Shown in pieces: positions 43,696 to 52,321 of a DNA stretch of 64,000 bases. The stretch is taken from positions 2,304,001 through 2,368,000 of the forward strand of contig CM000155.2 of the NCBI GenBank assembly GCA_000004695.1, given 5' to 3'. The DNA comes from Dictyostelium discoideum. Its lineage: Eukaryota. The translations under genes and the position numbers were made by a program. The notes beneath the pieces were generated by a model. The model was not told the origin of the DNA. It saw nothing but the letters and a program-made list of their open reading frames with translations, and did not search any database. Position 1 is the first letter of the stretch. Every line of letters begins with the position of its first letter.

Positions 43696-43716
43696 TTTGG
43701 TTGGCTACTAAAAATT

Positions 43717-43797
43717 CGACACCTGCAGGGTTCGAACCTGCGCCTCCGAAGAGAACGCCTTAGCAGGGCGCCGCATTAACCACTTTGCTAAGGTGTC
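43717..43797 (-). tRNA. tRNA-Ser (anticodon GCT), 81 nt
   Basis: The reverse complement reads GACACCTTAGCAAAGTGGTTAATGCGGCGCCCTGCTAAGGCGTTCTCTTCGGAGGCGCAGGTTCGAACCCTGCAGGTGTCG. It has a 7-bp acceptor stem, anticodon stem GCGCC/GGCGT with loop CTGCTAA (anticodon GCT), a long variable arm and T-arm GCAGG-TTCGAAC-CCTGC. It is closely similar to the tRNA-Ser(AGA) at 36655. Confidence 0.9.
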
Positions 43798-44090
43798 ATT
43801 GAAAATAATTTTGGGTGATACACTTACTTAAGATGTCGTTGTATATTTTTTGGGTCGTTTAAAAATATTTGTAATTTATTAAAAATGTAAATAAAACTAT
43901 TTTCAGAAATAATACTTGTAACGAATTATTTTTTTGAATGGAATAAGGCAATTATTAGTAAATAAATAGATAAAAAAGTCAGTAAATCTTATATTTTAAA
44001 AAGAAATCACTAATTTCAAATGAATTTGTAAAAATAAAATTTATATAAAAACAATTTATTATAATTTTAAAATTCTCTTTGAAACATTGT

Positions 44091-47623: not shown

Positions 47624-50600
47624 TTAATAATCATTATTATATAATTCTTGATTATATAATAATTTTAAATGATGAATTTTACCAGTATAATCTGATAAAA
47701 TTGAAGATAATTCACCATAATTATCAACCTTAAATAAAATATTTGAAGTTGAAATTGAACCTAATGGAAAAGCGGAAATGATTTCAGAAGATTCAACATC
47801 CCAAAGTATTGAATGTTTTTCATAGGAAGCAGAGAATAAATATTTGCCATTTGGAGAGAAAGATAAACCATGAACTTGGAAAACATGACTTTTTAAAGTT
47901 TTCCAATGATTGAAATTTGGTTTAATAGTGTACAATTCAATATCACCAGTTGATAAACAAAGTGCAAAATGATTTTTACTCCATGCCAAAGATGTAATTG
48001 GTTGAGATGAATTTGATTTGAAAACAACTGAATATTTTGAAGATGCATTCATTCTAAGGATATTAAAATAACCCTTTGAATCTCTTGTTAATAATAATTC
48101 ACCAGTTGAATTGAATTTACATTCATTTAATGAACCACAAAGACGTTCATTAAAAACTTCAACGTTGGTATTAATATTATAAATTACAATTCTACCAGTT
48201 TTACTTGAAAAAGCAACATCACCGTTACCATTTGGATTTACAGAGAAATAAGTTACCATTTCTGATTGTTGTTGTTTATCAGTAGTATCTATTGGATTTT
48301 TTAAATTTAATTGTAAAAATTCCTTAAATTGTATTTGTGAAGTATTGGCTGAAATTGATGCTTCATCAGGTAAACCATTTTCATTTAAAAATTGTTGGAA
48401 ATCTTTAATAATTACAACTCTACCATCTGATAATAAAATGATAAAAGTCTTTTCATCTGATAAAAGTTCAAATTGAGTAGCATAAATATTTAAAGTCATT
48501 CCTAATGATAGTAAATCATTTTTAGAGAAATAATTCCAAATTCTAATTGATTTATCTTCAGAGGTAGATAAGAGTATATCGAGTGATTTAATGTATTGTA
48601 AATAGGTTACAGCTTTTCTATGACCTTGAAGTACTTGAGTATTATTTTGACCTAATTTTGGATCCCAAATTTTAATGAATTTATCAGTGGCACCAGTAAT
48701 GATACGAAGTTTTTCACTATTTGGATGGAAAGCACAAGAGATGATTCTACCTGAATGACCAGTCATTAATGAAACTTGTAACCAATCTTTAGTTTCGAAA
48801 ACTCTAATAGTTTTATCATCGGAACATGATACCAAATATTTACCATCATAAGAGAAACGTGAACTAATAACCGCTTCAATATGACCTTCCAATTGTGCAA
48901 CCTTTGTCCATGTAGAGGTATTGAAAACATGAGTAAAAGTATCAACTGATGAAACTGATAAAAATTGATCATCTGGTGAAAATTGTAAGAATAAAATGGT
49001 TGAATTACAAATTTTGACGGTTTTAATTGGTTGAGCAGTTTTTGAATCCCAAATGATTAATTCACCATTCCAACAAGCGGTTGCAATCAATTTGTTATTA
49101 TGAGAGAAGGCACAAGTTGAAAGTTTATTGGTATGTTTCTTTAATTGAAATAATTTCACTTTCTTTTCAATATCCCAAATGATTGCACTTTGATCCCAAC
49201 TTGCAGTGACTAAACGTTTACCATCACCACTTACACTACAACCCCAAACTGCATTTGAATGACCACCTGCGAAATCGGCTAAAACTTTACCATATTCATC
49301 CCACATTAAAATCTTTTTGTCTCTACCAACGGAAATCAATTGATTACCTCTCCAAATGAGACTTGTAATTTTATCAGTATGAACCTTTGGGAAAACTCTA
49401 ATCAATGAACTAGTTTCACCACTCCAAATTCTAATGGTTTTATCATCGGAACATGAAGCAATCAATTTACCATCATCACGATATAAAACACATCTAATGA
49501 AATCTTCATGACCTGCCAATGTACCAATGACATAATCACTCAATTGTAATTTGTTAACCCATTTAAAGTATGGTTTCTTTGATTGATCTAAAAGTTTCTG
49601 TGATAATTGATTACAAATTGAACCATCTGGTAAATTATTTGCTTGTTGACATGTAATCATTGGGAATCTCTTTAAATTATGAACTTGATATTGAACAAAT
49701 GCACAAAAATCTTCAACTGAATTCACTGATGAAAAATTATTACCAACCCATCTTTCACCTGATAAACTTGGACTTTGAATCTCTTGTAATGATCCAATAA
49801 AATTCTCAACTAAATCTTTTGATAATCCAATTTTAATTTTTGCTTCAATAAATCTTAAATCCATAAATAAATTTGATAATAAATCCCAACGTTTTGATTT
49901 CATTAAATGATATGGTAATTCTTCAAATGGTTTTAATTTATTACTATTCGATAGTAAATTATTATTATTATTATTGCTATTGTTATTATTATTATTACTA
50001 TTATTATTATTATTATTTAATGACCAAGTTTTATTATTTAATGGATCAGCTAATGATAAATAATAATCAGCTAAATTAGATTGAATTAAAATTTGACTTT
50101 TTTCAGTTGGTAAATATTTATTAATGATTACTTTTACAATTGTATTATGAAAGAATGTAATAGTATTATGATCACCACCTCTTAACAATGGTGAAATTGA
50201 ATTTAAAAGTGGTGCCCAAACATTAAATGGTAAAGTATTTTGTTGTTGTTGTTGTTGTTTCTTTTCTTTTAATAAACCTAATAATTCTTCTTCTGATAAA
50301 CCAAATCTTGAAAGTGCAATAAAACATAAAGTTTTTTTAATTAAATCTTTACCCATATCTTCTTCCAAACGATTAATTATATTTAAAATTAATTGATCGA
50401 TTGTATCTGGTATACCTTTGGTAACGAATTGATTCAATTTCTCAAATGAACCAAATACTCTTAACTCTTCACAAGCCAATTTAATGAATAATGGGAATTT
50501 TGCATGAGTTTTTGAAATGAATCTATCTAATAACTTTGGTTCCAATTTTTTAGAAAATTTCTCTAAAGTTTTAGTTGCAATTAAATTCTTTTCATTGATT

Positions 50601-51964
50601 TCTAATGGTGGTAATGAAAGTGTAAATGGAATATTTGAACGAAGATGTAAATATTCCCAACAATCTTTACCATGATAACATGATAATAAAATTTTACATT
50701 TATCATTTAACTCTGTACTATCTGGTAACCAATCCATTTGATGTGCTTGATTTGATGTTGACATTTCATCTAAATCATCAATAACCAATAGAATATTTTT
50801 ATATTTACTTGCTTTCTTTAAAATCTCTGGGAAATCAATACGTAATTTCTCATGATTATCTGAAACTTCCATCTTTAAATTAAATTGTTGATTAAGTTCA
50901 CATGAGAATTTATAAAGAATATTTGTACTTTGAGTTGAATCAATTGAACAACCAACGAAATGATATAAAACCTTCCATGAATCACCATGATTATTTGTAA
51001 TCTCTTTGGCAAAATATGCAAGTGTTGATGATTTGCCACTACCTGGTTCACCATAAATAATACCAATTTTATCATTACTTTGTTTATCAGTTACAAATTC
51101 TTTAAGTTTCTTTTGAATATTCTCTCTACCATAATAATCTGATGATTTTGTATCGAAACAATTCTTATGAAATTGTAATTCTTGTTCAAATGAATCCAAT
51201 GGTTTCAATGGTGTTGGAAATTCAACTTCAATAATTGACCAAAGTTTATTGAAAACGTAATCGCCAAATGTTTCTAAATTGCTTACAAACACTTTAGCCT
51301 CCTTATCAACACCACCATATTTGCATGGATAATTCTCCAAAACATTACAATGATCATTCTCAATGAGTTTACGTTTTAAATCATTTAAAAGTTTTTCAGA
51401 TTCTTTATTCTCAACTTGAAATGATGCTTGATGGCTCAATGGTACTGACGATTGGAATGATGGATCTCTAAAGGCGGCTATACAATGTTTTGATGTCACC
51501 AATGAGTATTGCACCTCCAATGATGTAATGGAATGTCCAAGAGGCATTGAATTTAACCATTGTGAATATTGATCGTTATTATCCGATACTTTATATTCAC
51601 TTGGTACCCAACCAAATCTTGAACCCAACATTGTCAACATAATTGGACATTTATCAATCTGTTTCAAACATAACTCAATTTGACCTTGAACTGTAGTCTC
51701 ATCTTTTGTTAAACCCCATCTTAAATCAATTGGTACAATTGTAAGATTCTTTTCTTTGGCTTTAACATTCAATGCTGGAAATGTTACCTTTATTAAATGA
51801 TCTCTTTCACCCGACATATCCTTAAATGTTGATGATAAAAATACATAAAGTATTGTACCATTTAATTTATTTTCAATATTTTGTTTCTTTATAATTTTTT
51901 CATGTTTAATAATATTATTTTTTAAATCATTATCATTATTTAAACTATTCAATGTTGTTGATAA

Positions 51965-52002
<38 letters not shown>

Positions 52003-52078
52003 CTTTTTTCTTTAAATCAATTTTTTTAAATGGTGATGATAATGATTTTGATTCTGTATTAAATTTTGATTTAAATGG

Positions 52079-52109
<31 letters not shown>

Positions 52110-52321
52110 TAACTATCCTGAGAAGTAGATTGTTGTTGTTGTAACTTTAATTGTTTTTTTTTTTCTTTTTCAATTTCAATAACCATTTTTTTATTTGAAT
52201 TTACAACTTCTAAAAGTTCTTCTTTTTTCATAAATGGTGTATAAGAAATTTTGTAAGATTTTAACCATTTTTGAATTTCATATTTTGTTAATTCCTCTCC
52301 TGGAAATTCAACTTTAACCAT
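47624..52321 (-). CDS. NACHT/P-loop NTPase plus WD40-repeat protein (NWD1-like STAND ATPase), 1565 aa, single exon
   Basis: The N-terminal block LYVFLSSTFKDMSGERDHLIKVTFPAL resembles the DUF4062 module that precedes NACHT in NWD1-type proteins. The Walker A motif is GEPGSGKSSTLAYFAKEI and Walker B is ILLVIDDLDE. The C-terminal third contains >=10 WD40-type repeats (…GHEDFIRCVLYRDDGKLIASCSDDKTIRIW…, …GHSGRIISCAFHPNSEKL…, …SASYEKHSILWDV…). Confidence 0.85.

Follow-up and report, generated by a model that had tools for sequence, protein, structure and literature searches.

The locus examined here raises the question of whether Dictyostelium discoideum carries, besides its TEP1, a second protein of the same family that hydrolyses NAD+. 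We analysed a stretch of 64,000 nucleotides (the window: assembly GCA_000004695.1, contig CM000155.2, positions 2,304,001 to 2,368,000), in which a single open reading frame (ORF) on the minus strand, at positions 47624..52321, encodes a protein of 1565 residues. An earlier note, made from the sequence alone, had described this gene as an intron-less, NWD1-like STAND NTPase of the DUF4062-NACHT-WD40 type, with a possible danger-sensing or TEP1-like vault function. The protein joins a homologue of the NADase domain of human TEP1 to a NACHT-type NTPase and two WD40 propellers, retains the catalytic and P-loop residues, and is under purifying selection. Judged by its sequence, it is an old TROVE-less paralogue in the TEP1/NWD family, orthologous to neither TEP1 nor the NWD proteins as far as the data tell. 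By analogy with related systems, we lean towards reading it as a ligand-gated STAND NADase, in which oligomerisation through the NACHT domain would switch on NAD+ hydrolysis.

Domain architecture and the predicted NADase

The function of DUF4062, of which the earlier note was unaware, is now known: the domain is a TIR-like NADase (Osinski et al., bioRxiv 10.64898/2026.05.01.722283). Among human TEP1, NWD1, NWD2 and NPHP3, only TEP1 hydrolyses NAD(P)+; the activity requires E1008, with contributions from R908 and R976, specific activity climbs with protein concentration, and vaults contain the domain in an active form (10.64898/2026.05.01.722283). The same study describes Swarozyc, a bacterial DUF4062 homologue, as a portal-activated abortive-infection effector (10.64898/2026.05.01.722283). 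The human TEP1 NADase and the role of E1008 were confirmed independently by Le Mouellic et al. (10.64898/2026.09.04.749371), who found the domain as an effector of Avs proteins and renamed it NIR. According to these authors, 76% of amoebozoan genomes encode it, in most cases as the N-terminal part of an NLR-like protein (10.64898/2026.09.04.749371). Evangelion, a further DUF4062 defence family, was described in a third preprint of 2026.

We ran Pfam scans on the whole protein and on sub-regions of it (residues 1-930 for the N-terminal part) and read the scores against the curated cutoffs, which follow each score in brackets. All features of the gene lie on the minus strand. The NIR domain, a predicted NADase effector, spans residues 159-368 (51218..51847) and matches DUF4062 (PF13271) with 51.5 bits (24.7) and E=1.2e-13. 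Residues 159-365 also match the human TEP1 domain in PDB entry 11gz_A with E=1e-38 and two short gaps only; this 220-residue chain, named 'Telomerase protein component 1', was mapped to TEP1 residues 894-1113.

At the residue level, the catalytic E1008 of TEP1 corresponds to E269 (codon 51515..51517), which is invariant in the family (100/100 members) and in the dictyostelid orthologues (13/13). The equivalent of R976 is R235, conserved in at least 90% of the 100-sequence alignment and invariant in the same 13 orthologues. R908 is replaced conservatively by K167, which is also invariant in the orthologues, and the BB-loop residue R954 corresponds to G213. Altogether, 80 positions are shared by at least 80% of the family, and the protein keeps 67 of them. 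In an AlphaFold2 (AF2) model of residues 150-930 built from 100 sequences (mean predicted local distance difference test, pLDDT, 84.2; predicted template modelling score, pTM, 0.83), most of the NIR domain has a pLDDT above 90.

Next to the NIR domain lies the NACHT-type P-loop NTPase (residues 395-620, 50462..51139), which matched AAA_16 with 36.1 bits (32.6), NPHP3_N with 34.9 (24.8) and nSTAND1 with 29.4 (27.1). The NACHT model itself, PF05729, was borderline, scoring 26.7 exactly at its cutoff (26.7); PF05729 is annotated on most close homologues. Its Walker A motif, GEPGSGKS (residues 424-431, nt 51029-51052), fits GxxxxGK[ST], and its Walker B motif, LLVIDDLDE (residues 511-519, nt 50765-50791), is of the hhhhDD/GhDE type. 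G424, G427, G429, K430 and S431 are conserved in the family and in all orthologues, and D515 is invariant in the 100-sequence alignment (there D366).

The NTPase is followed by a regulatory module of winged-helix and helical (HD2) parts (residues 621-925, 49547..50461), recognised by HTH_NWD1 at residues 640-740 (29.9 bits; 27), by APAF1_C at residues 792-889 (27.5; 22.8) and by Foldseek, with a poly-N insert at residues 769-788. The remainder (residues 926-1565) matches WD40 (PF00400) with 195 bits over seven scoring stretches. Its AlphaFold model (pLDDT 84.5) contains 54 beta-strands in two blocks, about 14 blades in all, separated by a disordered insert at about residues 1320-1349, and its best structural matches are tandem double propellers: 2ymu, APAF-1 (template modelling score TMq 0.51) and AIP1. 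Propeller A (residues 926-1270, an approximate boundary; 48512..49546) has eight canonical repeats and an AF2 pLDDT of ~95-98. Propeller B (residues 1271-1565, 47627..48511) has about six degenerate blades in the AF2 model and is presumed to be the ligand-sensing end.

At the other end, residues 1-60 (52142..52321; MVKVEFPGEELTKYEIQKWLKSYKISYTPFMKKEELLEVV...) form a conserved HeH/SAP-like motif that reached 22 bits with Pfam Ish1, below the cutoff of 26.6, and had no PDB sequence match. It is kept in those dictyostelid orthologues with a complete N-terminus. A low-complexity linker with poly-Q, poly-S and poly-N runs and no Pfam match (residues 61-158, 51848..52141) connects it to the NIR domain.

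At the structural level, a Foldseek search of the core model against the PDB gave closed, ADP-bound APAF-1 as the first hit (3sfz, E=1.2e-10). A second APAF-1 entry, 1z6t, aligned with a template modelling score (TMt) of 0.50 over ~497 columns spanning the nucleotide-binding domain (NBD), first helical domain (HD1), winged-helix domain (WHD) and HD2. CED-4, Dark, plant resistosomes, NLRP7/14, MalT and Avs4 came next, with RFC, p97 and ORC at lower ranks. The protein thus shows the layout of an NBD followed by a helical lid, a winged helix, a second helical domain and a repeat sensor. On the profile matches, the Foldseek ranking and the effector-NTPase-WHD-HD2-repeat architecture, the NTPase is a STAND of the NACHT clade.

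A classical AAA+ or Orc1/Cdc6-type ATPase, the placement that would have spoken against a STAND, did not emerge from these searches. It could draw on a weak match to an NCBIfam Orc1/Cdc6 subfamily (32 bits versus a cutoff of 181) and on a weak PDB sequence match to Drosophila Cdc6 (E=9e-4). However, such scores are far under the family cutoffs, whereas NPHP3_N, nSTAND1 and NACHT, together with HTH_NWD1 and APAF1_C, reach theirs. Moreover, APAF-1, CED-4, the NLRs, MalT and the Avs proteins rank first over ~500 columns, the arrangement of domains is the hallmark of STANDs, and all close homologues carry a NACHT annotation. We consider this alternative negligible. What the earlier note had read from the letters was therefore confirmed in its main lines by Pfam, by Foldseek and by the two propellers: the DUF4062-NACHT-WD40 STAND, the at least ten WD repeats (eight canonical ones plus about six degenerate blades), and both quoted motifs, VFLSSTFKDMSGERDHL at residues 160-176 and GEPGSGKSS at residues 424-432.

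For the mechanism of the predicted ligand-gated NADase we took APAF-1, bacterial Avs-NIR and TEP1 as models. At rest, the WD40 propellers and the winged-helix/helical module would keep the ADP-bound NACHT domain closed. The propellers would bind a ligand, probably a conserved one, and nucleotide exchange would lead to NACHT-driven assembly of a ring. This ring would cluster the N-terminal NIR domains, and the clustered domains would use E269 to split NAD+ (or NADP+) hydrolytically into nicotinamide and ADP-ribose.

Several observations weigh against catalysis. The full-length human NWD1, NWD2 and NPHP3 keep the glutamate and yet have no NADase activity in vitro (10.64898/2026.05.01.722283), and eukaryotic NIR domains besides that of TEP1 are non-toxic in E. 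coli; conservation of the catalytic glutamate is thus not predictive of activity. Three family-conserved NIR positions are changed in the protein (R159Y, R185N and F282A), in addition to the glycine at the position of BB-loop R954, and the same three are altered in the Acytostelium orthologue (with His at 159). With 35% identity to human TEP1, the NIR domain ranks 72nd of 151, while that of a dictyostelid TROVE-type TEP1 ranks 7th with 44%.

These points fit a non-catalytic STAND scaffold, in which the NIR domain would serve only protein-protein interaction or oligomerisation, as most animal TIR domains do, and would lack NADase activity. Human NWD1, NWD2 and NPHP3 appear scaffold-like in vitro, two otherwise highly conserved arginines (R159 and R185) were lost in this lineage, G213 stands where TEP1 has R954, and the domain resembles human TEP1 less than the NIR of the dictyostelid TROVE-type TEP1 does. 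On the other hand, E269 and R235 are invariant in the 13 orthologues, and the NIR is the most strongly constrained large domain of the protein (omega, the dN/dS ratio, 0.05-0.09). The loss of R185 is not diagnostic, since human TEP1 itself lacks an arginine there (Gln in the 11gz_A alignment). A scaffold is possible, and we hold it to be clearly less probable than the ligand-gated NADase.

Relationship to TEP1 and selective constraint

To which branch of the family does the gene belong? We searched 1.84 billion representatives exhaustively with phmmer and obtained 10,688 relatives, the top ones of which share the full NIR-NACHT-WHD-WD40 layout. The best match, XP_012748461.1 of Acytostelium subglobosum, is 57% identical and has the same layout plus the N-terminal motif. 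In a separate homology search, many homologues among the matches listed are of the NPHP3/TTC41 type. In 23 of the best 150 matches of the 10,688, a TROVE domain (with DUF5920) precedes the NIR domain, and by this sequence feature we regard them as true TEP1-type proteins. One of them, XP_020426893.1 of Heterostelium album, has 2401 residues and is annotated as 'WD40 repeat-containing protein'.

In another reading, the gene would be the Dictyostelium TEP1 orthologue, a vault/telomerase subunit that binds vault RNA. The two share the NIR-NACHT-WD40 core, and the protein assigned to this gene below, Q54CE3, is enriched near MVPA to a degree akin to the published TEP1 candidate (+1.38 versus +1.61). 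Against this, Pfam detected no TROVE in residues 1-930, although the domain is readily detected in TEP1-type relatives; the TROVE/vWA module is missing, only 158 residues precede the NIR domain, and the DNA ahead of the ATG does not encode protein. Both H. album and Tieghemostelium lacteum encode an orthologue of our protein (48-52% identity) plus a separate TROVE-NIR-NACHT-WD40 protein of ~2400 residues (29-30%). The NIR domain of human TEP1 is also closer to the TROVE-type protein of Heterostelium (201 bits, 44%) than to ours (148 bits, 35%).

A bootstrapped neighbour-joining tree of 150 cores agrees with this separation. One clade of 24 (43% support) holds every one of the 23 TROVE-bearing proteins and, besides them, a short fragment; our protein falls outside it, paired with that of Acytostelium at 100% bootstrap, with Rigifila joining at 59%. 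This group sits among other TROVE-less protist proteins, and deep nodes have less than 15% bootstrap. The tree separates the protein from the TROVE clade and resolves shallow clades only.

In a published analysis, BLAST, Foldseek and OMA chose another gene, Q54CB5/DDB_G0293070, as the D. discoideum TEP1 orthologue (PMC13100048). The chosen protein is annotated as 'WD40 repeat-containing protein' and lies outside the window. Taken together, the TEP1 reading is effectively refuted as an orthology claim, and we give it a very small chance; the TEP1-like vault function that the earlier note had suggested does not hold in the sense of TEP1 orthology, with a separate TROVE-bearing TEP1 in existence. 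The two TEP1-family paralogues, presumably both on chromosome 6, may be loosely linked: the identifier DDB_G0293070 is 38 above DDB_G0293032, the one assigned to our gene, or ~19 identifier steps.

The label 'NWD1-like' stands for the architecture and fails for the sequence. In the full-length search, the protein scores 567 bits to the TEP1-type protein of Tieghemostelium, versus 111 bits and 21% identity to the only named NWD2-like protein among the matches listed. HTH_NWD1 was considered as a marker to tell NWD1 from TEP1 and rejected, as it also matches TROVE-type TEP1s. On these comparisons, the protein appears NWD1-like in architecture and nearer to TEP1 in sequence.

Across Dictyostelia, the gene is single-copy and 1:1 orthologous. 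With the full-length query, identities are 96% in a second D. discoideum isolate, 88% in D. citrinum, 86% in D. firmibasis, 66% in D. purpureum, 58% in Polysphondylium violaceum, 52% in T. lacteum, 51% in A. subglobosum, 49% in Cavenderia fasciculata and 48% in H. album (PPL_05758). D. citrinum, D. firmibasis and the second D. discoideum isolate all retain the single exon and the order DEAD-box gene, PH-domain gene, aspartic protease, our gene and mileS.

We estimated omega by the Nei-Gojobori method as domain averages, with the exon of the neighbouring mileS as control. For the whole gene it is 0.13-0.15, compared with 0.10-0.16 for the mileS exon. Within the protein, omega is at most 0.06 in the N-terminal motif, 0.05-0.09 in the NIR domain, 0.05-0.16 in the NACHT domain, 0.07-0.13 in propeller A, 0.22-0.25 in propeller B and 0.65-1.4 (near neutral) in the low-complexity linker. 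Propeller B is the least conserved domain (33% identity to Acytostelium). A search for diversifying selection by domain found none, and a few selected sites could be hidden under domain averages.

These values bear on the idea of a fast-evolving, NLR-like pathogen receptor, whose WD40 repeats would be in an arms race with bacteria or viruses over variable ligands. Such a receptor could draw on the NIR-STAND architecture, which the bacterial antiphage systems Avs, Swarozyc, Vulcan, Vesta and Evangelion also use, on propeller B showing the lowest conservation within the protein, and on the bacterial diet of Dictyostelium. However, a single-copy 1:1 orthologue with conserved synteny is no expanded or variable family, and even propeller B reaches an omega of only 0.22-0.25. 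The 96% identity between isolates reflects genome-wide divergence and not hypervariability of this locus, since synonymous divergence (dS) between the two D. discoideum isolates is ~0.07 at both this gene and mileS. Purifying selection equal to that on a housekeeping neighbour argues against an arms-race receptor, which we find improbable. The danger-sensing role suggested in the earlier note may still hold, as averages over domains are compatible with the sensing of a conserved danger signal. PADLOC gave no meaningful defence-system match for the protein.

The isolates deserve a remark of their own. Both GCA_054883475.1 and GCA_054859355.1 are labelled D. discoideum (the gene copy in the second lies at 5001-9689 of the locus compared), and the dS of ~0.07 between them is large for one species, so that one of them may be a cryptic species or belong to a divergent lineage.

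Gene structure, identity and neighbourhood

The coding sequence at 47624..52321 is complete and consists of a single exon with 1565 codons and a TAA stop. In the window (~25% G+C), the probability of a stop is ~0.088 per codon, and 1565 stop-free codons would arise by chance with a probability of ~1e-63; in the remaining five frames of 47624-52321, the longest open runs are 36-96 codons. The start codon has the context AAAAATG and is preceded by several hundred bases of homopolymer-rich non-coding DNA. An AT-rich spacer follows the stop, and the next gene starts at ~47327.

The gene is intron-less, since the ORF has no breaks, the orthologues align end to end and the annotators of four assemblies called a single exon. 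One of these calls, on contig JBTAPE010000034.1 of the D. discoideum assembly GCA_054883475.1, gives the identical 1565-residue product. Both the single 4.7-kb exon and the contrast with the neighbours were thus seen correctly from the letters: mileS has an intron (GTAAGT...AG, ~47093-46962), and the aspartic protease has 389 residues spread over 1609 bp.

The window contains, in this order, an ABCG transporter, a THH1/TOM1-domain protein, a CHD-type remodeller, an S28 peptidase, a tRNA-Ser with a retroelement fragment, mileS, our gene, the aspartic protease, the PH-domain gene and the DEAD-box helicase. A published AX4 data set lists Q54CF8 as Chromo-domain protein DDB_G0293012, Q54CE4 as mileS, Q54CE3 as 'NACHT domain-containing protein' DDB_G0293032 and Q54CE0 as ddx17, a DEAD-box helicase (PMC13100048 source data). 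This run of accessions mirrors the gene order, and Q54CE2 and Q54CE1, undetected in those data, fall at the positions of the protease and the PH gene. Among the ORFs of the window, we found no second NACHT or WD40 gene. From the match between accession run and gene order and from this uniqueness, the ORF is very probably DDB_G0293032, UniProt Q54CE3, by a positional assignment.

We also considered the published TEP1 candidate Q54CB5/DDB_G0293070 for this ORF and rejected it: Q54CE3 adjoins mileS, ddx17 follows three accessions on, and the Chromo-domain gene lies beyond mileS. The N-acetyltransferase DDB_G0293062 was tried as a positional marker, and no such ORF was found near our gene. We found no paper naming DDB_G0293032 in its main text.

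If the assignment is right, protein-level expression and vault proximity can be read from the same data. Comparing MVPA-TurboID with cytosolic TurboID, Q54CE3 was detected with 21 unique peptides, a log2 fold change (log2FC) of +1.38 and q=5.6e-8 (PMC13100048, Fig. 5D source data). The TEP1 candidate Q54CB5 reached +1.61 and the vault-associated PARPs +1.37 to +3.49; both Q54CB5 and Q54CE3 were significant, and only Q54CB5 was discussed (PMC13100048). Two points weigh against building on this result. The assignment of Q54CE3 rests on position and not on sequence proof, and its enrichment is no greater than that of the ribosomal protein eL30 (+1.37), while the mitochondrial mileS was 'significant' at +0.97 (PMC13100048). 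Given these two proteins, vault proximity is weak evidence. Q54CE3 thus appears to be expressed in growing cells and to be modestly proximal to the major vault protein (MVP), a signal too unspecific to make it a vault component.

We can nevertheless imagine that dictyostelid vaults, or the MVP-proximal compartment, carry two NIR-STAND NADases. In the paralogue, the HeH-like motif would replace TROVE for targeting or nucleic-acid binding, and NAD+ hydrolysis would feed or compete with the vault PARPs. We regard this as a rather improbable speculation. If true, the cell would hydrolyse NAD+ through two differently gated enzymes, a division of labour unseen in mammals, where only TEP1 is active.

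Regarding the remainder of the window, some further features were observed. The CHD-type remodeller (17369-26731), probably DDB_G0293012, extends across three successive ORFs of the plus strand; its domains are Chromo, SNF2 and Helicase_C, with a sub-threshold trace of the CHD1 HTH. The last of these ORFs ends in a ubiquitin-like region and a Rad60-SLD/SUMO-like domain, which may be a separate gene or an unusual C-terminal fusion. ORF 8391-13424 on the minus strand (1677 residues) has a C-terminal THH1/TOM1/TOM3 domain (30 bits) as its sole recognisable domain, and its N-terminal ~1380 residues carry no annotation.

About 150 bp separate a tRNA-Ser(AGA) gene (36655-36736, plus strand) from the fragment of a reverse-transcriptase ORF that follows it downstream (36885-37652, plus strand). 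This fragment clusters with retroelement proteins of D. discoideum and D. citrinum (55 members); the segment 36655-37652 looks like the insertion of a tRNA-gene-targeted (TRE-type) retroelement. A tRNA-Ser(GCT) gene (43716-43798, minus strand) is found ~300 bp past the stop codon of mileS. Finally, a tRNA-Glu(CTC) gene (61116-61187) lies within the 5' end of a mechanically called ORF of 502 residues without Pfam match (61088-62596), the 5' part of which is therefore probably non-coding.

Comparison with known systems

The gene was already annotated, and its family and amoebozoan prevalence have been described; in this respect it is a regular representative of a family already known. New, as far as we found, are its distinction from and coexistence with the Dictyostelium TEP1 orthologue, the HeH-like N-terminal motif in place of TROVE, the housekeeping-like constraint and the presence in the MVPA proximity proteome. 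A likely annotation trap is also corrected, in that the orthologue of TEP1 is another gene than the TEP1-looking one beside mileS. It was only in 2026 that a function for DUF4062, and an enzymatic one for TEP1 in vaults, came to light.

Dictyostelium is haploid, genetically tractable and vault-rich, and it has two old, separately conserved TEP1-family genes, with and without TROVE, whose products were both apparently detected near the major vault protein. It thus offers a genetic system to ask whether a TROVE-less NIR-STAND is an active NADase, what its WD40 propellers bind, and whether NAD+ turnover is the purpose of vaults.

Compared with human TEP1, the protein has the same core of NIR, NACHT, WHD, APAF1-like helical domain and WD40, keeps the catalytic glutamate and the R976 equivalent, and shows in its model the beta-hairpin that precedes the last helix of the TEP1 TIR-like domain. 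Near MVPA, the TEP1 candidate Q54CB5 and Q54CE3 are both enriched. TEP1 differs by its TROVE and DUF5920/vWA module, in whose place our protein has the 60-residue HeH-like motif and the low-complexity linker, and by its length (~2400-2700 versus 1565 residues). The R954 and R908 equivalents are Gly and Lys in our protein, and human TEP1 is an active NADase, whereas the activity here is a prediction.

NWD1 and NWD2 share the NIR-NACHT-winged helix-helical-WD40 layout without TROVE, and our protein matches HTH_NWD1 above its cutoff. Human NWD1, with ~1564 residues, is of similar size. The differences lie in the sequence, with the NWD2-like match far below the TEP1-type match and deep tree nodes of low bootstrap, and in the human proteins being inactive as NADases.

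The NPHP3/TTC41-type proteins (for example D. discoideum DDB_G0287407) have the NIR-NACHT core in common with our protein, which matches NPHP3_N above its cutoff. Their sensor is made of TPRs instead of WD40 repeats, and the neighbour-joining tree places these TPR-type proteins in clades apart from that of our protein.

With APAF-1, CED-4 and Dark, the protein shares the logic of an effector, an NTPase and a WD40 sensor in series. Closed, ADP-bound APAF-1 (3sfz and 1z6t) is the best structural match to its core, its helical domain matches Pfam APAF1_C, and tandem C-terminal propellers occur in both proteins. However, APAF-1, CED-4 and Dark have a CARD adaptor where our protein has a putative NIR/TIR-like enzyme, its NTPase groups with NACHT-clade Pfam models and not with NB-ARC, and sequence identity is only ~14-16%.

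Bacterial defence systems complete the comparison. Avs2-NIR, Swarozyc, Vulcan, Vesta and Evangelion have homologous NIR domains with the same catalytic glutamate, and Avs proteins join the domain, as ours does, to a STAND NTPase and a sensor made of repeats; eukaryotic NIR domains carry inserts that are missing from KpSwz. Among the significant homologues are bacterial DUF4062-NACHT proteins, for example from Gemmataceae and Acidobacteriota, and a Chloroflexota protein with WD40 repeats. The latter, MFC1892852.1, is a full DUF4062-NACHT-WD40 protein in a tree clade of 11 such proteins (100% bootstrap; the organism was checked for MFC1892852.1 only), and the bacterial ones have ~1400-1600 residues and the layout of the NWD/TEP1 core. 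The effector output of the bacterial NIR systems is NAD+ depletion. Their genes are mobile, patchily distributed and triggered by phage proteins, whereas the Dictyostelium gene is vertically inherited, single-copy and under purifying selection.

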